Origin: a virus
Lineage: Duplodnaviria > Caudoviricetes
DNA length: 64,000 nt
Direction: 5' to 3' (one strand)
IMG/VR virus record: IMGVR_UViG_3300020469_000008
Location: 1-64,000 of that record
Below are positions 41,023 through 56,237 of this stretch, in pieces. Numbering within the stretch: position 1 is the first letter of the stretch; each line of letters starts with the position of its first letter. The notes under the pieces are model-generated. The model did no database searches, was not told the DNA's origin, and saw only the letters and a program-made list of their open reading frames with translations. A program made the position numbers and the translations under genes.

Positions 41023-41851
41023 TAAAAAAAGAAACGTAGGTATTATATACGAGCTTTTATTAAATCATATTAGTACAAAGCTTCTGGAAGGGAAGAAAAG
41101 AGAAGCAAAAACTGCAACTAAATTAATTGAAAAGCACTTTAAAAAAGGCACAGAGCTTTACAAAGAATTTAGGCTTTTTAACGCGCTTGCGAAATCAGAT
41201 ATAACACAAACACATGTTGTTGCATCAATATTAAATGAGGCAAAAATTGCTAGCAGAAATCTTAACGAAAGACAGTTAGAACGTGAAAAATCATCGCTAC
41301 TTAAAGACATAAACTATAAAATTAATGAGAAAGATTTCTATTATAGAAGTATTGACAATTATCGCGATCTAGGTTTAGTTCAACTGACACTCAATGAGTG
41401 GCGCAAAGATGATAGAGATATTAAGCGTCTAGTCGACTTCGAAACACGATTGGGTGCATTAATGTTAAAAGAGAAGAATAAAGTAAATGAGCAAAAGTAT
41501 GATGCGTCTCACAGTGACAGATTGGTTTTAAAGATCATGACTGAAAAATTTAATAAACGTTACGGTGAAGAACTAACCAGAGATCAACAAAAAATTATTG
41601 AAGGTTATGTTTTCTTATCTGATAAGGAACCTGACAATTTAAAAAAGTTTTTTGAAACCAAAAAAGAAGAAGCTTTGAACAGTTTAGAAAACTTTGAAGA
41701 TATATCTGATAATCGTTACTTGTTATCAAAATTGGACGAAGTTCGAAAGAAAATTAATAATTTACCCTCTAATGACATTAACGATGCAAATGTTGTTAAG
41801 TTTTTGACTCTTACAAAGATGATAAATGAAATTAAAAAGGAGATATCATAA
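41012..41851 (+). CDS. Helical head-module protein, function unknown
   Basis: 279 aa (MKHNKKRNVGIIYELL...) between portal and protease; GGAG SD. Confidence 0.65.
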   Translation: MKHNKKRNVGIIYELLLNHISTKLLEGKKREAKTATKLIEKHFKKGTELYKEFRLFNALAKSDITQTHVVASILNEAKIASRNLNERQLEREKSSLLKDINYKINEKDFYYRSIDNYRDLGLVQLTLNEWRKDDRDIKRLVDFETRLGALMLKEKNKVNEQKYDASHSDRLVLKIMTEKFNKRYGEELTRDQQKIIEGYVFLSDKEPDNLKKFFETKKEEALNSLENFEDISDNRYLLSKLDEVRKKINNLPSNDINDANVVKFLTLTKMINEIKKEIS

Positions 41852-41852
41852 T

Positions 41853-42455
41853 ATGTCTGCAGAATTAAATGTTTTAAGAGAATGGACACCTATTTCTTGT
41901 TCAAAGGAAATGTTAAAGGAATCCCGCGAGCAATATGGAAAAATAATGTTGACGGGAATCATCCAAAAAGCAAACACCTTAAATCAAAATGGGCGAGTAT
42001 ATCCTAAGCCGATTCTAGAAAGAGAAATAATGAATTACCAAAAGATGATTCGTGAAAATAGAGCGCTGGGAGAATGCGATCATCCTGATTCGTCTGTAGT
42101 TGAATTAAAAAATGTATCACATATTGTGAGAGAAGCTTACATGCAAGGTGATGATGTCTATGGTAAGATAGAGATACTAGACACTCCTAGCGGTAAAATT
42201 ATACAGTCTTTAATTGAAAGTGGCATTACGCTTGGTATTTCATCACGTGGCGTAGGCTCAACTGTATCACAGGGTGGTAATCAGGTTGTACAAGACGATT
42301 TCCAGTTAATTTGTTTTGATATGGTGTCTGAACCGTCAACTCCCGGTGCATTTATGCTAAAGGAGCACAAAGTTTTAAGAAAAGATTTAGATAAAATTTT
42401 TAACCAAACAGATAAAATCGATAGAATGTTTAATGAGATTCTGAGGTGGGAATGA
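41853..42455 (+). CDS. Prohead maturation protease, T4 gp21-like
   Basis: NQNGRVYP, ALGECDHP, NVSH, GISSRGVGS, FDMVSEPS motifs; AAGGAG SD gives start at 41853. Confidence 0.93.
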   Translation: MSAELNVLREWTPISCSKEMLKESREQYGKIMLTGIIQKANTLNQNGRVYPKPILEREIMNYQKMIRENRALGECDHPDSSVVELKNVSHIVREAYMQGDDVYGKIEILDTPSGKIIQSLIESGITLGISSRGVGSTVSQGGNQVVQDDFQLICFDMVSEPSTPGAFMLKEHKVLRKDLDKIFNQTDKIDRMFNEILRWE

Positions 42456-42982
42456 ATAGTAAAAGCAAGACAGCACTCAAAAATATTGTTAAAGAATGTT
42501 TAATTGAAATATTGGCAGAAGGTTTGGTAGGTAATAACAAAGCTACACTTAGAGAAGCGAGAGAGCTTCGTGGGACCATACAAGAGTCATATGAGAAAAA
42601 CGCGAGTCGAAGAATTGTTGAAACAAAATTCCAACAACCAACCCAAGTTACAAAATCGCGACAGACTGCACAACGAAGACCGTCATACTTAGATAGTATT
42701 AAGATGGGTGTTGATTCAGCTTCAGAAAGACAATCAAGCATGATTAAAAATACAGTTAAAAATTTAACCAATGATCCAGTTATGAGTGATATATTAGCTG
42801 ATACTGCTATGACAACCCTACAAGAACAGAAAGAGGGGTCTAGACCATCTGGTCCAAGCGTAATGGCAGGGGGAGATCAAGCAGCAAAAATTGTTGATCA
42901 ATCGTCACCTGACGAGTTGTTCGGGGGTCAAGCTAGTAAATGGGCTGATTTGGCATTTTCACCATCAATTAGAAAGGGATAA
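42452..42982 (+). CDS. Head-module protein, function unknown
   Basis: ATGA overlap with protease stop; starts MNSKSKTALKNIVKECLIEILAEG, with several hydrophobic-x-E sites. Confidence 0.6.
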   Translation: MNSKSKTALKNIVKECLIEILAEGLVGNNKATLREARELRGTIQESYEKNASRRIVETKFQQPTQVTKSRQTAQRRPSYLDSIKMGVDSASERQSSMIKNTVKNLTNDPVMSDILADTAMTTLQEQKEGSRPSGPSVMAGGDQAAKIVDQSSPDELFGGQASKWADLAFSPSIRKG

Positions 42983-44379: not shown

Positions 44380-45852
44380 ATGAGTAAACTATTCGAAGAA
44401 GCAATAGCAGATGCAAAAAAACTCAAAGAGGTTGCAGAAGAAAACGCAAAAAAAGCGATTCTAGAATCTGTAACACCTCAAATTAGAGAGTTTATCGAAG
44501 AACAATTATTAGAAGAAAACAAAGAGGAAACATACTCGTTAAAAGATGAGAATAAAGACGAAATGTTTGATACTCTTGAAGAAGAAGTTTATCTTGACGA
44601 GAGCGCTTTGGCGTCCTTAGTTGAGCTAATTGGTGAAGATAATTTAGATTCCCTAAATGAGTCTAAGTCACAAGAAGCACTTTTTAGTGCTGTAAAAGGT
44701 GCAGTTGCCACAATGGACGACGACCAACGTGAACAACTGTTAAATTTATCGCACAAATTAAATGAAAGTGCTAATCATTTATCTAAGACAGAAAAAGGAG
44801 AAAACATGTCTAAGAAATATTATGAAGTTGACCTTAGAGCACTGAGGGAAGCATTAGAAGAAGACGCATATGATCAAACTGATGAGACTATGCATGAAGA
44901 AGAAACTGATATGGCAGAAAAGGCAGATGATGAGTTAAAAGAACTTTACGAAGAATTTTCTGCTTTACTAGAACAAGACGAAGAACCAGAAGCTGATGTA
45001 GAAACCCCAGAAGCGGGTGCAGCAGCAGAAGGCGGAGAAGACATGATTGCAAAAGACGAAGTTGAAGATGCAATTCGTGCTCTTTTAGATGATTTAGCAT
45101 TAGATCTTGAAGACGAAGGCGCAGGAGCAGAAGGTGGAGCTGCTGAGGCTCCAGCCGGCGATGAGGCACCTGAATTTGATTTAGCTGCTGCTATGGGCGG
45201 TGGTGATGATGAAGAAACTTTAAACGAAGTATTTGAAGTTGATCCTCGTGTTTTACGTCAAGAATTAGGAAGAATTAGAAGAATGGTTGCTGAAGGTAAA
45301 GTTGATCACCACTTCGGTGGTAAAGGTGGCGGAAACGCTGGAGTCGACGGATCTTACGGTGGTAAAGGAAAACAAAACGCTGGCGTTAACGGCGCATTTG
45401 GTGGTGGTAAGGAAGGACAAGATGCTTTCACAAACCCACCCCAGATAAACAAACTTAACGAGGCAATTCGCCAACTGAGACGTCAAAATCGATCTCAGAA
45501 CGAGAAACTGAACAAATACAGAGGAGCTGTTAATTCTCTTCGTGAACAGTTGGAAGATCTCAATTTATTCAATGCAAAGCTTTTGTATGTTAACAAATTG
45601 TTGCAAAACAAAGGCCTGAATGAGAGTCAGAAGAAGTCTGTTATTAAGGCTTTGGATGAAGCACAATCTTTGACTGAAGCAAAATCTTTGTATAAGTCAC
45701 TAACTGAAACGTTTAGTCGTGGCGGTGAAAGAAAAACAATCTCAGAATCTCGTGTTCTTGGAAGTTCTTCTCGACCAACCACTTCTTCTCAGTCAAGCGC
45801 AACATCTAATAACGGTGAGTTAAGTAGATGGCAACGTTTGGCCGGTTTATAA
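44380..45852 (+). CDS. Prohead core/scaffolding protein
   Basis: Very acidic, helical/coiled-coil, directly upstream of MCP, many L/I-x-E sites (ILES, LLEE, LNES, LNEV, LNEA, LTEA, ISES); C-terminus RWQRLAGL. Confidence 0.8.
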   Translation: MSKLFEEAIADAKKLKEVAEENAKKAILESVTPQIREFIEEQLLEENKEETYSLKDENKDEMFDTLEEEVYLDESALASLVELIGEDNLDSLNESKSQEALFSAVKGAVATMDDDQREQLLNLSHKLNESANHLSKTEKGENMSKKYYEVDLRALREALEEDAYDQTDETMHEEETDMAEKADDELKELYEEFSALLEQDEEPEADVETPEAGAAAEGGEDMIAKDEVEDAIRALLDDLALDLEDEGAGAEGGAAEAPAGDEAPEFDLAAAMGGGDDEETLNEVFEVDPRVLRQELGRIRRMVAEGKVDHHFGGKGGGNAGVDGSYGGKGKQNAGVNGAFGGGKEGQDAFTNPPQINKLNEAIRQLRRQNRSQNEKLNKYRGAVNSLREQLEDLNLFNAKLLYVNKLLQNKGLNESQKKSVIKALDEAQSLTEAKSLYKSLTETFSRGGERKTISESRVLGSSSRPTTSSQSSATSNNGELSRWQRLAGL

Positions 45853-45894: not shown

Positions 45895-47847
45895 ATGAGT
45901 AAGTCATTTACTTTGAATCAGTTGACTGAAGGTATCCGTGATCGTCACGTAGGCCAAGAAGCAACAAGAATTCAAGAAAAGTGGACCAGAACTGGTCTTC
46001 TTCGTGGTCTACAAAACCACGCTCGCGAAAACATGTCACGTTTACTTGAGAACCAAGCAGCTCAAGTACTTCGTGAAGCAAACACCTTAGGTGGCACATC
46101 TGGTGACGCTGGTCGTGTTGATGGATTTTCAAACATCGCATTCCCAATCGTTCGTCGTGTATTTGGTGGATTAGTTGCAAATGAATTGGTATCTATTCAG
46201 CCTATGTCTCTTCCAAGTGGACTCTTGTTCTACTTAGATTATACATACGGTTCTGATGTAGGTGGTGATGCAACTGCTTCAGGAAATGCATTGACAGCAA
46301 CTGGTGGATCAACTTATAATCAAGGTGATTCTATTTACAACAACCCAGGTGGAGCCGGTGTTCGTACTGGTTCTGACGCAACTGGTGGTCAATACGATCT
46401 AGTTGGTTCTGGTTACTCTAAAGTGCACGGTAATGTTGCATTTAGCGCAACTGGTAATGCTCTTAACGGTGCAATGGGTGGAGCTGCAAATCAATCTTTT
46501 ACAATTGCAGCAAATCTAACTACAAGTGGTGCTGATGGTAAACTACTTCATTTTGATCCACAACTTTCACGTGAAATCAGTGAAGGTACTAACAACTATC
46601 AAGTTCTTTTCCTCTCTGCTTCTCTCTTGCGCGAAGCTTCTGGAAGACAAAGAAGAGTTGATCCTACTTTGATTAAAGAAGTTGCTCTTTATTCTGAAAA
46701 CGGTACTAATGGACGAGGTCCCGGTAATTTAGTATCAGGACTGACTGTTCCTGGTAGTAACATTCAAGGTGGTAGCAACATTTGGAACGTTAGACGTCTT
46801 AATGAGCTAGGTACTTTGACACACAGTGCTGCTGGTACAACTTTCACTCCTGATCCTTTCGCATCAGTAAGTGCAACAGGAACTGTACTTAAGACAATCG
46901 TACAAGGTGCAGCTACTTCGATGGCAGCTGTCGATACAGGATTAAACTTGTCTGCTTCATTCCCAGTAGCTGATCAATTGTCTGAATCTGGAGACGCTGA
47001 TACTGGTTCTGTTGTGGTAATTCCATCATTCGAATCAAACTTTGCTTCTGAACCTACACCAGTAATTCCAGAAATTGATATCAAAATTGAGTCAATTGCT
47101 GTTACAGCTACAACTCGTAAGTTAAGAGCTCGTTGGTCACCAGAACTCGCACAAGATCTTAATGCTTATCACTCAATGGATGCTGAAGTTGAATTGACTC
47201 AAATCCTTTCTGAGCAAATCGCATTAGAAATTGATCGTGAAATTCTTAATGACCTTCTTGTTGAAGCGAAAGGTGCTAACTTCTTCTGGTCACGTGCTCC
47301 TGGTAAGTTCGTTAACAAGAGAAGTGGTGTTGCTGAAAACTTGGCGTCATCTCTTTCAACTGGACCACAATTTACTGGTACAGTTCGTGAGTGGTACGAA
47401 ACATTGGTTGAAACTATCATTGACGTTGCTAACGAAATCCATAGAAAGACTCTTCGTGGTTCTGCGAACTTTATCGTAGTTTCACCTGAAGTTGCTACTA
47501 TCTTCGAAGCTTCTGTATTGTACAAGCCAAGTGTTAAGATCGATGGTCAAGGTCAAGTTGCCTTAGGTAGCATTGGTGCTGAAGCTATTGGTTCTCTTTC
47601 TAACAGATTTACTGTTTACAAAGATCCTTACTTCCCACGCAACAAGATTCTTGTAGGATACAAAGGTGGTTCATATCTTGAGTCTGGATACGTCTATGCT
47701 CCATATGTACCGTTGATTGTAACTCCAACAATCTTCGCACCAGAAGACTTCACACCAAGAAAAGGTGTAATGACTCGTTACGGTAAGAAAATGGTTCGCG
47801 CCGACTTCTACGGAACAGTTACTTGCTTGGATATGGATATTATCTAA
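45895..47847 (+). CDS. Major capsid protein, T4 gp23-like (HK97 fold) with large insertion
   Basis: FPIVRRVF, VSIQPM, TRKLRARWSPELAQDLNAYH, EIDREIL, YAPYVPL, PRKGVMTRYG; AAGGAG SD. Confidence 0.95.
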   Translation: MSKSFTLNQLTEGIRDRHVGQEATRIQEKWTRTGLLRGLQNHARENMSRLLENQAAQVLREANTLGGTSGDAGRVDGFSNIAFPIVRRVFGGLVANELVSIQPMSLPSGLLFYLDYTYGSDVGGDATASGNALTATGGSTYNQGDSIYNNPGGAGVRTGSDATGGQYDLVGSGYSKVHGNVAFSATGNALNGAMGGAANQSFTIAANLTTSGADGKLLHFDPQLSREISEGTNNYQVLFLSASLLREASGRQRRVDPTLIKEVALYSENGTNGRGPGNLVSGLTVPGSNIQGGSNIWNVRRLNELGTLTHSAAGTTFTPDPFASVSATGTVLKTIVQGAATSMAAVDTGLNLSASFPVADQLSESGDADTGSVVVIPSFESNFASEPTPVIPEIDIKIESIAVTATTRKLRARWSPELAQDLNAYHSMDAEVELTQILSEQIALEIDREILNDLLVEAKGANFFWSRAPGKFVNKRSGVAENLASSLSTGPQFTGTVREWYETLVETIIDVANEIHRKTLRGSANFIVVSPEVATIFEASVLYKPSVKIDGQGQVALGSIGAEAIGSLSNRFTVYKDPYFPRNKILVGYKGGSYLESGYVYAPYVPLIVTPTIFAPEDFTPRKGVMTRYGKKMVRADFYGTVTCLDMDII

Positions 47848-47876
47848 TCCAAACACCTTCTGGTGAATTTAACAAG

Positions 47877-47906
47877 AGGCGTCTCCTTCGGGAGGCGTCT
47901 TTTTTT
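47877..47906 (+). terminator. Rho-independent terminator after major capsid gene
   Basis: AGGCGTCTCC-TTCG-GGAGGCGTCT stem (two G-U pairs) with cUUCGg loop, followed by T-run. Confidence 0.9.
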
Positions 47907-47952
47907 ATGTAAACAGCAAAACTATAAGATATTTATAAAAGTACAAGAGGTA

Positions 47953-48270
47953 ATGATGAAAACCACAAGAAAGCAGCTACAAAAACTAATATTAGAGGCA
48001 ATGACAGGTATAGCATCGATGCCGTCAGCAGAAGGTGTTGATCAAATAGAAGAAAACCCAATTGTCAAAGATATTAATATTGAAATGATTGAGCAAATTT
48101 TAAATGAAGGCATGATAGCAATAGGTAATCAAGGTAATGACTACTATGCTGATACAAAAGCAATGATTGATAATGACAATACTATAATTCTTACTGCAGG
48201 ACCTCTAGATACACCATTTGCTGAAATAATAGTAAATTTTAAAGATTTAAGTCACATCACAAAAACTTAA
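47953..48270 (+). CDS. Putative internal head (cargo) protein with shared leader
   Basis: AGAGG SD gives start at 47953 or 47956: MKTTRKQLQKLILEAM. Confidence 0.65.
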   Translation: MMKTTRKQLQKLILEAMTGIASMPSAEGVDQIEENPIVKDINIEMIEQILNEGMIAIGNQGNDYYADTKAMIDNDNTIILTAGPLDTPFAEIIVNFKDLSHITKT

Positions 48271-50410: not shown

Positions 50411-50466
50411 GCCCGGCACACAGCATAAAGGCGACCCCACCGTCGTGTCGGAATCTTGTGGACAAG
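50411..50466 (+). promoter_or_regulatory. GC-rich structured 5' leader candidate (unidentified cis-regulatory RNA)
   Basis: CCGGCAC/GTGTCGG stem with inner GAC/GTC hairpin and CTTG-TGGA-CAAG hairpin; much more GC-rich than surrounding intergenic DNA. Confidence 0.4.
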
Positions 50467-50490
50467 TATCTCAAAATTAAGGAGGAAATT

Positions 50491-51000
50491 ATGCCAAAGG
50501 TAACATATACAAATTCGAAAGGATTGTTTCAAGAAACAGGTACAGCGGACGTTAATCTGTCCGGACAAGGAGCATTGTTCGGTCAGCTTTTAAAAATCAA
50601 GACTGTCACAGCCACAACAGTGTTGCGCGATACAGACTCAGGAAAAATTGTTTTAGTTAATCCAGCTGGGACCACACTACTTACATTACCAAGCGTGGCA
50701 AATACAGGATGGACTATCACAATAATTCTTACAGAAGACGCAGCTGGATCTGATCAAGGTATGGGACAAAAAGTTAATATTGACTTAGGTTCAGGCGCTA
50801 ACCTAGCCAATATCGGACAAATACACGAAGTCGATGGGGCCGCCGGCGATTACGCAGTAGCCAATGATGACTTTATTAATTTCTCAGCTAATGCTTCACC
50901 TGGTGACAGAGTCGATATATTTTCAGACGGATCTAGATGGCACATTTACGGTCTAGTAAAGGATGCTACAGAGGCTGTATTCAACACAGCAGCTGGATAA
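50491..51000 (+). CDS. Putative capsid decoration/fibre protein, paralog 1
   Basis: AAGGAGG SD gives start at 50491; 169 aa, beta-rich (DSGKIVLVNP...LTLP...GDRVDIF). Confidence 0.55.
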   Translation: MPKVTYTNSKGLFQETGTADVNLSGQGALFGQLLKIKTVTATTVLRDTDSGKIVLVNPAGTTLLTLPSVANTGWTITIILTEDAAGSDQGMGQKVNIDLGSGANLANIGQIHEVDGAAGDYAVANDDFINFSANASPGDRVDIFSDGSRWHIYGLVKDATEAVFNTAAG

Positions 51001-51012
51001 TAGGAGATTAAC

Positions 51013-51522
51013 ATGCCAAAAGTAACGTATACAAGTTCGAAAGGATTATTTCAAGAAAGCGGAACTGGTGAAGTAAATTTATCAGGTCAGGGTGTTTTGT
51101 TCGGTCAATTAGCAAAAACTGAAGCAATTACTGCTACTACAGCGTTGGCGTCAACTGATACCGGTAAAATATTTTTTGTCGATCCAACAGCAGCAACATT
51201 AATTACTCTACCTGCGCTAGCCTCTTCTTTAAAAGGTTGGTATTGTCGATTTGTGCTCACGGAGAATGAGACAGGAAACGCACAAGCAATGGATGCAAAA
51301 GTTAATATTGACTTGGGCGCTGGAACAGCAAACGTCGGTCAACTTCATGAACTAGACGGCGGGGCTGGAGATTATTTGGTCTCCGGAGACGATTTTGTAA
51401 CATTCTCTGCCAATGCATCAGCAGGAGACAGAGTTGATATCTTTACAGACGGTAATAGATATTATGTTTACGGTTTTGTCAAAGAAATTGCTGAATGTAA
51501 TTTTCATACCGCAGCTAGATAA
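51013..51522 (+). CDS. Putative capsid decoration/fibre protein, paralog 2
   Basis: AGGAG SD; 169 aa; clearly homologous to paralog 1 over its full length. Confidence 0.55.
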   Translation: MPKVTYTSSKGLFQESGTGEVNLSGQGVLFGQLAKTEAITATTALASTDTGKIFFVDPTAATLITLPALASSLKGWYCRFVLTENETGNAQAMDAKVNIDLGAGTANVGQLHELDGGAGDYLVSGDDFVTFSANASAGDRVDIFTDGNRYYVYGFVKEIAECNFHTAAR

Positions 51523-52166: not shown

Positions 52167-52463
52167 ATGTCATCAATTAATAGAGATAAAATCAGAAAAT
52201 TAATTTTAAAAGAGTTTAAAATGATGGGAATGGCTGATATGGGCCACGGCGGGATGAAGCCAATGGGAATGGTGCACACTGTTGATCACGGCCATGAAGC
52301 TAGTCACGGTCATTCTGTGATGAAATCAGCTAAAAGTTGTGTATCGCGCGAAGATTGCTGTGCTGCAATTATGTGTTTGGTTGAATGTTGCGAATGCCCA
52401 ATCACAAAGCAAGTAATTATGGAATGCTGCCAAGAAATCATGTCTGGTCAACACGATCATTAA
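52167..52463 (+). CDS. Leader-tagged Cys/His/Met-rich small protein (putative metal-binding cargo)
   Basis: AAGGAG SD; MSSINRDKIRKLILKEF; 9 Cys and 8 His in 98 aa. Confidence 0.65.
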   Translation: MSSINRDKIRKLILKEFKMMGMADMGHGGMKPMGMVHTVDHGHEASHGHSVMKSAKSCVSREDCCAAIMCLVECCECPITKQVIMECCQEIMSGQHDH

Positions 52464-53839
52464 TGAAAATTACTCGACGCCAGCTCCAAATGTTAATACA
52501 GGAGGAGATACGACAGGTGAAACCGGGTTGTTATAAAGTATACCCGAAGAAACCAAAGCGTGGCAAGAAGCGTCGTAAAGCATTATCTAAAAAGTGCAAG
52601 ACTAAGAAAGCAGCAAAGAAGCATTTGGCAGCTATTGAAATTAGTAAATCGATGCGTGAGGATGACAATCCTTGTTGGGATGGTCACAGGCCAGGTGCTC
52701 AAACCGGACAAAAAACAAAAATCGGAAAGAGTGGAAATCGCGTTGCAAATTGTGAAAAGATAAAAGAATCAATTCTTTTAGAGTCCAAATATGAACAACT
52801 CATATCACAATTACCTGGGTTGTCGTTAGTTGTTACTGAAGATATGCCGCGCGGGTTTGCATTAGATTTGCAATACGATGATTACATGATCGCATCTGCA
52901 GAGATAGTAGCTCTTTCTGTAAACCCAGGTGAACCATGTATTCCTGAGACAATGTCAGTTAGTACTATTTATACCTCGCCAGATTATCAGAATTTAGGGA
53001 TTGGTGAACTTTTACTTGATCTGATATTCTACTATGCTAGCACGTTAGACGGAGGAAAAGGACGAGGTATAACAACAGATTTGCGAGGTGGTAACACACC
53101 AATTATTAATTACATAATTCAAAGAGCATTACAAGATCCTGCATACTACAAGCAGACCACCAAAGCCGGTAATGACGAGATGGACTTTTTTGAAAAAACT
53201 AGCGACCCGGATGATGATTGCTACTCCGAATTCCTTGACGGTAAAGGTATATACTGGTTTATTAGTCAAGGTATGTCCGAAGAAGAAGCATTCGAAAAAG
53301 TTGAAATGACAGATGGAGATTTAGGCACGACTAGCTCTTGGCGAAAGAGAGGTATTGAATCTATAAAGCCTATATATGACATGCTCACACAAAGACAGGG
53401 TGCTGATGTACTTTATAGACCAGTCATTAGAAGTCGACAGTTCCAAGATGCTTATCGTAATACACCTACTCCTGAAGAAATACGTTCATTTCAAAGAGGT
53501 AAGAAACTAAAAGAACGCAAAGAACCAAGAAAAGGCACCGGTAAAAAACCAAAAGGTAGTACTAGGCGATTATATACCGATGAGAATCCCAAGGATACTG
53601 TCTCTGTTAAGTTTCGAACTAAGTCTGATATACAGGACACTTTATCAAAAAAAAGCTTTAAGAGTAAAGAACATAAGCGGCAGTCGCAGATAATTAATCT
53701 CATACATCAGCGCGTTCGTGTTGCTTACAAAAATGCAAAAGATCCTGCAACGAAAAAACGCTTAAAGCTTGCGTATGATTATGCTAAACAGAGAAAAGAA
53801 GCCAGTAAGCTTAAAACAAAAAAAATGAGGAAGAAATGA
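52463..53839 (+). CDS. Leader-tagged multi-module protein with GNAT-like acetyltransferase domain
   Basis: TAATG overlap gives start at 52463 (MKITRRQLQMLIQEEI); GNAT motif A IYTSPDYQNLGIGELLL; K/R-rich terminal modules. Confidence 0.65.
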   Translation: MKITRRQLQMLIQEEIRQVKPGCYKVYPKKPKRGKKRRKALSKKCKTKKAAKKHLAAIEISKSMREDDNPCWDGHRPGAQTGQKTKIGKSGNRVANCEKIKESILLESKYEQLISQLPGLSLVVTEDMPRGFALDLQYDDYMIASAEIVALSVNPGEPCIPETMSVSTIYTSPDYQNLGIGELLLDLIFYYASTLDGGKGRGITTDLRGGNTPIINYIIQRALQDPAYYKQTTKAGNDEMDFFEKTSDPDDDCYSEFLDGKGIYWFISQGMSEEEAFEKVEMTDGDLGTTSSWRKRGIESIKPIYDMLTQRQGADVLYRPVIRSRQFQDAYRNTPTPEEIRSFQRGKKLKERKEPRKGTGKKPKGSTRRLYTDENPKDTVSVKFRTKSDIQDTLSKKSFKSKEHKRQSQIINLIHQRVRVAYKNAKDPATKKRLKLAYDYAKQRKEASKLKTKKMRKK

Positions 53840-54351: not shown

Positions 54352-55152
54352 ATGAAAGTTACACGACGTAAACTTAAAATGATTATTGAGTCTTTCCTTC
54401 ATGAAGAAAAGGAAAAACTTGAGAAAGATCACGGCAAAAAATATGTTTGCCCAAGCTGTGGTCATGTTCATGATTCTAAAGAAGATATTAATGCCCTCTG
54501 GTCAGGAAAAAAGTGTGTAAAGTGCGGTACAAAATTTGACCTAAAGACCGGTAAAGTTCCATCAGGTAAAGGCAAGGGGCAAAAGTGGGGAATTCATGCT
54601 AATACTAAAAGTGAGTCAAAATTAAGAATGCTTCGCGAAAAAAGACATCGTAGAAAAAGAAAACTAAGAGAAACTGCGAAAGAAACTGAATGTCCTACAG
54701 CGACAACAGACATTAGTGTTAACACAGCTAATCGCGACCGAGCTCGCAAACTTGACTGGATTATATACGGCCCTTTAAATGTAGAATTTCCGGGAAAGTA
54801 TTGGGAAAAGATATCAAAAAAGTGGGGAACAGACGTTGAAGCAGCAAAGAAGTCAAACTGTGGTGTTTGTGTTGCTTTTGATCGATCCCCGAAGATGGTT
54901 GATGAGTGCATACCTGCAATAACGTCTGAACCTGTTGCAGATGAGTTCGGTGTTTTAGGGTATTGCTGGATGCACCACTTTAAGTGTCACAGTGCAAGAA
55001 CATGTAACACTTGGGCAGCTGGTGGTCCGATTAAGACTGATGAAGCGTCAGGCGAATGGTTTGAACGTAATAAAGACGGTGCGTTAAAGAAAGATCCAAT
55101 CGATCCTAATATTTATAGGGACGATACTAATACTTCACAGGAGACAGAATGA
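54352..55152 (+). CDS. Leader-tagged protein with zinc ribbon and Cys-rich (HiPIP-like) module
   Basis: MKVTRRKLKMIIESFLHE; CPSC...CVKC; NCGVCVAF...GYCWMHHFKCHSARTCNTW. Confidence 0.65.
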   Translation: MKVTRRKLKMIIESFLHEEKEKLEKDHGKKYVCPSCGHVHDSKEDINALWSGKKCVKCGTKFDLKTGKVPSGKGKGQKWGIHANTKSESKLRMLREKRHRRKRKLRETAKETECPTATTDISVNTANRDRARKLDWIIYGPLNVEFPGKYWEKISKKWGTDVEAAKKSNCGVCVAFDRSPKMVDECIPAITSEPVADEFGVLGYCWMHHFKCHSARTCNTWAAGGPIKTDEASGEWFERNKDGALKKDPIDPNIYRDDTNTSQETE

Positions 55153-56237
55153 AAATATCAAGAAGAAGAATTAGACAACTTATAAGAGAATCCCGCGAAG
55201 AACATATCCAGGGAATTAGAAGTAAACTAGTTAGATTAAATGACGAATTAGAAAACAGACAAGAGGCACTTGATGATTTAAACTATCAATCACAAAGTAT
55301 GATGGATTTTTATTCAGATGACCCATATGCTGGTAGAGATGAGATGATGGCCGGTGACCCGATTAGAGATCAAATATATGACATCGAAAACAAGATAACA
55401 TTGTTGCAAAATCAACTAGATGCTTTAGAAGCTGCTAATGGTGGCCCGGTAGGTCAACTACCAAGGGGTAGAATATTCGAAGAAGTTTCTGATCTGACTG
55501 ATGAAAAACAAAAAGAAATAGATGACGCAGTTGCTGATTATTTAGCCAAAGAAGGCGGAGCAGCATCTGAAGAGGGAACCGAAGATATTGTTCGTGACAA
55601 GGTTGATGGCATTGATGCAAAATCGTATCTTTCAAACAATGAAAGATTTAAGCAGCTAACAGTAAATAACGACCCAATGGACTATTATGATACAACTTTA
55701 ACTGAAGCTAGAGTCTTTATTAGAGAGAAATTAGAAAAAATTGGTTTTTACAAGAAGTACGGTTACGGATTAGATGATATACCAAACAAAACAAAAGCGC
55801 ATGACGATATCATAGGGCACACGTGACTGACCCACGTTAAGCGGAAGGATTCTGCTTTAAATGAAGTTGGTGAAGTTTTATGGCACAGCCTTGATGAAAG
55901 TGGTCACATATCTGTTTATGACGTCGAATGGTCAGACGGTACAATTGAAAGAGATATCCCAGCAATTTTATTAGAAAAAGTTAAAGATAGTAATGCTGTC
56001 GACGAGGTTCACGAGGCACACGGTGTAGACGGACATAGACTAGATTCTGCTATCGATGAGAGAAAGTACAAGAAAAAGAAAAAAACAAAGAAACGTAAAA
56101 AGAAAAAGCATAGTTTGTACCCATATGTGTTTGGGTTTGGCTATCACCACGATGCTGAAAATTATGATTATGATATCGGTGGTGATTATGGAGATTTTGG
56201 AGGCGGCTTCGGTGACGGAGGCGGTGGTGGAGAATGA
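55149..56237 (+). CDS. Leader-tagged multi-module protein interrupted by one in-frame TGA (55824-55826): readthrough, nonsense mutation or sequence error
   Basis: MKISRRRIRQLIRESREE. After the TGA the same frame stays open for 136 codons (LTHVKRKDSALNEVGEVLWHSLDESG...GGGGGE) and ends in an ATGA overlap with the next gene; no in-frame ATG or GTG start in the downstream part. Confidence 0.65.

Follow-up and report, generated by a model that had tools for sequence, protein, structure and literature searches.

A module-chain gene of a marine T4-like phage, a candidate precursor of capsid-packaged proteins

In bacteriophage T4, a capsid-targeting sequence (CTS) of 10 residues suffices to load unrelated or foreign proteins into the head, and the prohead protease, gp21, cuts after L/I-x-E (PMC9026906; PMC3012670). 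Asp at P1 blocks this processing, and Alt, one of the four T4 proteins that are tagged in this way, is a packaged ADP-ribosyltransferase (PMC9026906). Here we describe a gene, the target open reading frame (ORF), that appears to be organized along similar lines. It occupies positions 52463–53839 (+ strand) of the window—the whole 64,000-nucleotide stretch of DNA that was analysed, part of a 202-kb viral record (IMGVR_UViG_3300020469_000008)—and the phage from which it comes is a distant T4-like, uncultured, marine jumbo phage. The 458-aa, 52 kDa product is a chain of parts: a leader, a basic module (M1), a Cys module (M2), the short segment SILLE, an acidic GNAT-like module (M3) and a second basic module (M4; Table 1). 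On balance, we read it as the precursor of capsid-packaged, probably ejected, head proteins, cut at the leader and at the joints between modules by a protease of family S77. That it is leader-tagged head cargo is quite likely; that at least one internal cut is made is also probable, if less so. We infer packaging, cleavage and enzyme activity, all three, from sequence.

The likeness to the T4 internal proteins (IPI, IPII, IPIII and Alt) is one of arrangement. In both systems a short N-terminal tag that ends in L/I-x-E precedes otherwise unrelated proteins, the head cluster includes a gene for a gp21-family S77 protease, and the set of cargo proteins is hypervariable from one relative to the next. 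Both have basic, Lys-rich products (predicted ones here) and enzyme cargo, represented by Alt in T4 and by an ADP-ribosyltransferase (ART) among the partners of M4. The differences are considerable, too. The leader is 14 residues long, basic and amphipathic, with no evident similarity to the T4 tag, and about 27–30 genes per genome are tagged here versus 4 in T4. The chain of modules, with its internal sites, would yield four or five products from one ORF, whereas T4 internal proteins lose their ends alone. General Pfam and PHROG scans of the target protein returned no T4 internal-protein family; no direct alignment to T4 proteins was made.

A second parallel is offered by the inner-body or ejection proteins of phages phiKZ, 201phi2-1 and SPN3US. 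These are cut by a diverged gp21-type protease (gp175/gp245) after the Glu of a three-residue motif (PMC10052503; PMC5694885; PMC9026906), at several sites per protein, and their products are DNA-associated and ejected. The motif there is S/A-x-E or A-x-E, however, whereas M, I, L and L stand at P3 at the joints here; and in phiKZ and SPN3US multiple cuts mostly dismantle long N-terminal propeptides that exit the head (PMC10052503). The pieces here are, instead, modules, independently folded and independently shuffled, that are found also as separate genes. No sequence relationship to the inner-body proteins was seen, and no homology search aimed at them was made. Viral polyproteins and polymorphic toxins are alike in logic—units split by sites for the virus's own protease, and handles (leader, M1, M4) joined to swappable cargo—but unlike in their setting, which here is a tailed-phage capsid with a prohead protease, and they share no homology with it. 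Most likely, the system is of the T4 CTS/internal-protein type, extended to a polyprotein layout, and differs from T4 in scale, tag sequence and its layout of shuffled units.

A chain of shuffled modules

The start of the gene can be placed at 52463 because its ATG overlaps the upstream stop codon by one base (TAATG), because orthologues begin MKITRRQLQ at the same Met, and because paralogous leaders are present on other genes of the genome. The mechanically called ORF that begins further upstream, at 52385, can be discounted as the gene, in view of the overlap and of the orthologues' start Met. A preliminary description, made from sequence alone, had pictured this gene as a polyprotein punctuated by hydrophobic-x-Glu sites. 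The strings that it quoted are all present in the ORF, and composition does change abruptly at the joints, from a net charge of +18 in M1 (52 aa) to −14 in M3 (244 aa) and +27 in M4 (107 aa). Its implication that such sites are frequent did not hold up: the protein has 9 [LIVM]-x-E versus 5.6 ± 2.1 in shuffled sequences (P about 0.09), and 6 L/I-x-E versus 4.0. Since the number of sites is at chance level, the case rests on their placement and on comparison with relatives.

A word-indexed search returned 1,764 relatives, and HMMER, run in full against 1.84 billion representatives, returned 634, 221 of them at E<1e-30. The whole architecture recurs in about a dozen proteins only, and the other relatives hold subsets of it, or other orders. 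Those with M3 include leader-M3 (262–276 aa), leader-M3-M4, leader-M3-M1-M4 and leader-M1-M3; those without it include leader-M1-M4, leader-M1-M2-M4, leader-M2-x-M4 and leader-M1-LysM-GH24-M4. M1 is found after M3 (P0018–P0020), before a LysM-lysozyme (P0037) and immediately before M4 (P0124). M2 takes other positions in P0038, P0039, P0126 and P0127, and a wider variant of it, CW/CQ-KGY...NCVK, is present within many M4 proteins. A module-wise search thus bears out the proposal of independent modules strung into one ORF: every one of them also occurs by itself, in a different order and beside different partners.

M4 is the most promiscuous of them. It is matched by at least 221 clusters (50% identity) at E<1e-30, occurs on at least 586 IMG/VR contigs, and can be N-terminal, central or C-terminal in proteins of 93 to 1,547 aa. 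Its partners are GH24+LysM lysozyme, amidase, canonical GNAT, Tox-ART-HYD1, protein kinases, Zeta toxin and SOD, together with ParB_N, PAP2 and cytidylyltransferase-like domains, and this cargo is effector-like.

The place of the target ORF in the genome is variable, too. In a closely syntenic TARA scaffold (L088) the same slot holds leader-M3 alone; its flanks are as in the window, with the membrane protein and the Met/His/Cys-rich leader protein ahead of it and the gp13-like gene behind. In another relative (L003/L004) the slot holds leader-M1-LysM-lysozyme-M4. The slot is therefore hypervariable, and resembles in this the internal-protein loci of T-even phages.

The leader is spread over the genome. 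A position-specific scoring matrix (PSSM) built on it picks about 27–30 genes in the 202 kb, in nearly all of which Glu is at residue 13–16, and the 16 leaders that were listed end, without exception, in [LIM]-x-E. The bodies that follow this common leader are mutually unrelated in Pfam and PHROG scans. Leader-like N-termini are borne, as well, by the core-like proteins that adjoin the protease gene. A literature search returned no paper with the leader or M4 peptide strings, and none on CTS in marine metagenomes.

Junction sites and the prohead protease

The joints end at residues 14 (LIQE), 66 (SMRE), 102 (IKE), 107 (ILLE) and 351 (KLKE). The site at the leader's end (residue 12) is kept in all 29 aligned relatives and the site after M1 (residue 64) in all 10, whereas the triplets inside domains, at residues 124, 160 and 271, are kept in about 10% of relatives. 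[LIVM]-x-E occurs at most 14 aa upstream of M4 in 137 of 179 distinct contexts (77%), versus 17.6% of random 14-mers from the same proteins, and the Glu is nearly always 6–7 residues ahead of G-x-G-K-K-P. After the conserved ..SK of M1 there is an [LM]-x-E in 14 of 15 contexts. The close subfamily of M2 ends NC-x-K-I-x-E whatever comes next; over all contexts, I-x-E follows NC in 6 of 39.

The module borders, placed at Glu sites in the preliminary description, match the natural termini of proteins in relatives, and a conserved hydrophobic-x-Glu is present at them. The C-terminus of stand-alone M3 proteins (leader-M3 genes) falls exactly at the M3/M4 border, and the N-terminus of leader-tagged M4 proteins likewise coincides exactly with a joint. 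At their other end, stand-alone M3 proteins start ..SLIKESILLE/SKY.. (the slash marks the joint), where the target ORF has ..EKIKESILLE/SKY... In the neighbouring gene at 54352, whose C-terminal domain has hundreds of stand-alone homologues, the internal joint (..SKLRMLRE..KLRE/TAKE..) lines up with the leaders at the N-termini of those homologues. Judged by these alignments, the joints derive from the leaders of stand-alone genes: the target gene arose by in-frame fusion of leader-tagged genes, and its joints retain the cleavage-proximal end of those leaders. They are not full leader copies. That version was rejected, as the leader PSSM misses the joints, and the last, cleavage-proximal residues alone are common to both. 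Similar punctuation had been reported from two nearby genes. FLHE, MLRE and KLRE are all present in gene 54352; in gene 55149, RIFE and TLTE are present, but a TGA at codon 226 interrupts the frame ahead of ILLE and AIDE, which are real only upon readthrough.

The prohead protease that this proposal calls for is encoded by the phage and is of the T4 gp21 type (Table 1). Among 25 viral records that bear M4, 12 have an S77 gene, including all seven records of at least 100 kb, and in the S77-positive records every one of the 11 M4 genes has the upstream site. M4 lacks both leader and x-E site in three complete genomes that have no S77, namely G008, G009 (with terminal repeats) and HTVC033P. In these three, M4 is either leaderless, or joined to an M1-like unit without x-E site; a further 17 short stand-alone M4 genes are leaderless, and start M-x-K-R-K-D-P-K. 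The co-occurrence of site and protease suggests that leader and joints are protease substrates, of which this is the pattern expected.

As we picture it, the 14-residue leader would act like the T4 CTS and bring the precursor into the prohead core, and there the gp21-type S77 protease would cut after E14, E66, E102 and/or E107, and E351. M1 (6 kDa) and M4 (12.6 kDa), both Lys-rich, would be released and probably lie on the packaged DNA; M2 would be set free as a 4-kDa Cys module; and M3 as a 27.6-kDa GNAT-fold protein, probably an acyl-CoA-dependent transferase delivered with the DNA. Contact of M1 and M4 with DNA is considered probable because of their high charge and by analogy with T4, in which Lys residues of the internal proteins touch DNA phosphates (PMC3012670).

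Several observations weigh against processing at the joints. The total number of x-E sites in the protein is that expected by chance; other residues occupy P3 in about a quarter of M4 contexts; and the wider M2 family ends NCVKAE, a misfit to L/I-x-E and an exception for which we have no explanation. The contrast between S77-positive and S77-negative records comes from few genomes, and these are phylogenetically non-independent. M4 is present in phages without S77, too, so its function is independent of processing, and the sole match of the target protein in a tblastn search of 50,697 phage records was gp40 of Pelagibacter phage HTVC033P, which leaves no cultured T4-like carrier among them. 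Packaging and cleavage in this lineage are predictions from genes. Finally, what the joints preserve may be scars of leader fusion in evolution, and not functional sites. The main rival explanation, built on such scars, which we think unlikely, holds that the leader alone is removed, or that nothing is cut, and that basic M1 and M4 tether an intact GNAT-like enzyme to the packaged DNA, the x-E sites being left-overs of fusion. It accords with the chance-level count, with the derivation of the joints from stand-alone genes' leaders, and with their failure to match the full leader profile; cargo typically stands between M1 and M4 (P0037, P0029, P0041), which suits a two-handed tether, and T4 has its own example in IPIII fusions that stay intact after CTS removal (PMC9026906). 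Left-overs fit less well with the fact that junction sites, unlike in-domain sites, which decay, persist in diverged relatives and after many separate fusion events, or with the absence of junction sites where S77 is absent, despite fusions of an M1-like unit with M4 there (L060, L035). A protease with so short a motif, moreover, ought to cleave linkers that lie exposed within the prohead.

It is improbable, in our estimation, that leader and joints have no connection with the capsid, and belong to an ordinary multi-domain cytoplasmic enzyme whose N-terminus is a membrane, tail/baseplate assembly or translation-initiation signal. Some leader arrays do stand among non-structural genes (L005, beside UDG and AAA genes), M4 does occur in phages of other types, and packaging is deduced rather than directly seen. 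However, the genes for internal proteins lie dispersed beyond the head cluster in T4, too, which counts against this explanation. So does the leader itself, which ends in the exact motif of a protease encoded 10 kb upstream, and so do the core-like proteins beside that protease, with their leader-like N-termini and enrichment in the motif. Across records, too, leader and site co-occur with S77.

Extended from one gene to a whole group, the packaged-precursor reading becomes a good deal more tentative. On this view, marine T4-like jumbo phages, which are abundant, would operate a polymorphic effector system delivered by the capsid. A clip-off leader and the basic handles M1 and M4, domains not described before and extremely conserved (above all M4, of 105 residues, with 77% mean identity over hundreds of unrelated architectures), would be combined with dozens of enzymes, and the head protease would dice the precursors into injected proteins; M4 would then be a new DNA-associated virion family, stand-alone in small pelagiphages. 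The cargo enzymes would comprise GNAT-like proteins, lysozymes, amidases, ADP-ribosyltransferases, kinases, Zeta-toxin-like proteins and nucleotidyltransferases. Were this so, the tag principle of T4, which serves four proteins in one coliphage, would be in use on a larger, combinatorial scale in widespread uncultured ocean phages, with tens of tagged genes per genome and module chains that give rise to many injected products by way of one protease. Such phages would hold a large reservoir of effectors for first-minute host takeover and anti-defence; M1, M2 and M4, domains without a function, would gain a cellular address; and leader plus L/I-x-E linkers would amount to natural design rules for filling phage heads with several proteins encoded by a single gene.

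Properties of the modules

M3 had been called GNAT-like in the preliminary description. A GNAT fold with motif A does appear in its model, but its sequence scores under the Pfam threshold for the family: it matches Acetyltransf_1 (PF00583) with E 0.0015 and 19.3 bits, under the cut-off of 20.7, and PF13508 with 18.4 bits, where the cut-off is 27. The AF2 model, made from 23 homologues, has a pLDDT of 65 and a pTM of 0.68. All but one of the 50 Foldseek matches listed for it are GNATs (best E 2.4e-4, the ten best up to 1e-3), and alignment with human GCN5 (VIA) gives Z 8.5 (rmsd 3.1, 120 residues aligned), in a list made up of GNATs. The sub-threshold Pfam score and the middling confidence of the model weigh against the assignment, as does the fact that Z of 7–8.5 is attainable by unrelated folds. 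Even so, the model makes a GNAT fold very likely. What M3 shares with the GNAT superfamily (PF00583/PF13508) is the fold of residues about 110–303 and the Q-x-x-G-x-G cofactor loop, in the stretch YQNLGIG (residues 175–181, nt 52985–53005); judged by eye alone, an N-x(5)-Y stretch beyond strand 5 also agrees with GNAT motif B. It departs from the superfamily in its score, in an acidic, poorly modelled insertion of roughly 65 residues before the last strand, and in an extra, conserved C-terminal region in which DPDDDCY and TTSSWRKRG are invariant.

Transferase activity of M3 is predicted, and we lean cautiously toward it. It is quite possible, instead, that M3 has the fold without the activity, and serves as a binding or structural domain, for example as an inhibitor of a host defence protein, like T4 IPI. 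The Pfam score, the large insertion and the strongly conserved non-GNAT C-terminal part are in keeping with an inactive domain. So is the replacement of the last motif-A Gly, at the third position of the motif, by Ser in several relatives, and so is the outcome of a search of PDB sequences with the M3 profile, which matched none of them, and no solved GNAT. An inactive domain is harder to square with the invariance of the motif-A Gln and first Gly, and with the strand-helix order of the cofactor site (beta4-alpha3), which is kept in the model.

For M4, the AF2 model (pLDDT 81) has a disordered Lys/Arg tail (GTGKKPKG..RRLYTDENP) and then three helices. Fold searches returned generic helical hairpins alone (Foldseek E >1; VIA best Z 8.2, a dynein stalk), and the M4 profile found a single, chance-level match among PDB sequences. 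The pelagiphage protein, HTVC033P gp40 (L001:6001-6291), is a leaderless, stand-alone M4 homologue of 96 aa and 47% identity, encoded in a 53-kb genome without S77.

M1, M2, M4 and their stand-alone relatives have no credible Pfam match in scans up to E 10, and the whole target protein belongs to no PHROG family. An Atlas structure search with M1-M2 gave TM <0.5 to clusters bearing WGR, Arm-DNA-binding and DUF3721, which are leads only; DUF5771, an ESM-Atlas lead with a score of 0.86, was dropped after hmmscan did not reproduce it. A third cargo of about 190 residues (..IARTESGG..NPFQLD..), without Pfam match, is bracketed by leader-M1 and M4 in P0029 and P0041.

A second, widespread type of leader was also seen. 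Nine consecutive small genes at L005:11068-14878 start MNLQESI(R/K)RILREE and then diverge completely. The run adjoins a protein that bears M4 and M2, in a region with UDG and AAA genes, and MNLQESI-type leaders occur on many M4 proteins as well.

Head genes and neighbouring leader genes

The target ORF lies between the head genes and a gp13-like neck gene, within a run of leader genes, and is followed downstream by the gp13-like gene and by sheath genes (Table 1). In T4, the core proteins gp22, gp67 and gp68 are diced by gp21 at many L/I-x-E sites (PMC9026906), and the density of L/I-x-E in the scaffold-like and core-like proteins of the window is the pattern of T4 core proteins for gp21 (PMC9026906).

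Table 1. Coordinates of the target ORF, its modules and selected genes of the window
Feature	Position	Strand	Basis or remark
Peptidase_S77 (T4 gp21-type) prohead protease, presumed processing enzyme	41826..42455	+	Pfam PF03420 E 4.7e-28; PHROG 207 head maturation protease E 1.7e-53
Small core-like protein adjoining protease	42446-42982		6 L/I-x-E vs 1.5 in shuffles (z 4.2)
Scaffold-like acidic protein, directly upstream of major capsid gene	44380..45852	+	26 L/I-x-E vs 10.2 ± 2.7 in shuffles (z 5.8)
Gp23-family major capsid protein	45895-47847		Pfam/PHROG scans
Upstream leader gene, 98 aa, Met/His/Cys-rich	52167..52463	+	Leader MSSINRDKIRKLILKE; translationally coupled to target ORF
Target ORF, N-terminal leader, residues 1-14 (MKITRRQLQMLIQE), ends I-x-E; candidate capsid-targeting propeptide	52463..52504	+	Recurs on other genes of the genome; kept in aligned relatives (counts in text)
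Target ORF, M1, residues 15-66, Lys-rich, pI 10.7, 6.1 kDa, ends ..AAIEISKSMRE	52505..52660	+	Composition; recurs in relatives
Target ORF, M2, residues 67-102, small Cys module (two Cys) NPCWDG...GNRVANC, ends EKIKE	52661..52768	+	Recurs in relatives
Target ORF, SILLE, residues 103-107, remnant of the leader of stand-alone M3 genes	52769..52783	+	P0014, P0024, P0025, P0027: leader + SILLE/SLLLE, then same M3
Target ORF, M3, residues 108-351, acidic, pI 4.5, 27.6 kDa, ends KKLKE	52784..53515	+	GNAT-like core, insertion, conserved C-terminal part
GNAT motif A of M3, QNLGIG, residues 176-181	52988..53005	+	Q and first G invariant in 23 homologues; Pfam GNAT matches centred here
Target ORF, M4, residues 352-458, very basic, pI 10.7, 12.6 kDa	53516..53836	+	77% mean column identity over 31 otherwise unrelated contexts
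Downstream leader gene, acidic, 168 aa	53836..54342	+	Leader MKISKKYLRRLIKE
Leader gene: leader, zinc-ribbon module, basic joint (MLRE, KLRE), Cys-rich C-terminal domain	54352..55152	+	Same architecture as target ORF
Leader gene, 225 aa to in-frame TGA	55149..55826	+	Leader MKISRRRIRQLIRE
Leader gene, 135 aa	56234..56641	+	Leader MKIDKDRLRRIISE

The major capsid protein is long, 650 aa compared with about 520 in T4; the Gp23 match falls mainly on residues 386–641, which leaves a large extra N-terminal or inserted region. L/I-x-E is over-represented in this protein, too (14 vs 4.9). Its closest cultured relatives are Microcystis and Flavobacterium myophages, at 35–45% identity.

Between the head genes and the run of leader genes there are tandem paralogues at 50458–51000 and 51013–51522 (both MPKVTYT.SKGLFQE.GT..VNLSGQG..), a shorter relative of which is present in L003, with a faint Phage_depo_C match. 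For the ORF at 47863–48270 the mechanical start is too early; an internal Met gives MMKTTRKQLQKLILE.., a leader gene of about 105 aa from near 47953.

The gene immediately upstream of the target ORF, 52167–52463, has conserved counterparts in the corresponding place of two syntenic loci, L003 and L088, and its product (MGMADMGHGGMKPMGM..HGHEASHGH..CCAAIMCLVECCEC) resembles a metal-binding peptide. Downstream, the C-terminal Cys-rich domain of gene 54352 (residues about 108–266, ECPTATTD...GYCWMHHFKCH...) is a very common stand-alone, leader-tagged protein of 161–172 aa in marine metagenomes (649 relatives), for which no family assignment was obtained. In gene 55149 the frame stays open past the TGA (..DDIIGHT-TGA-..) for 137 further codons, to 56237, and has a poly-Lys/Gly-rich tail at its end; the same arrangement is found in L088 and L086.

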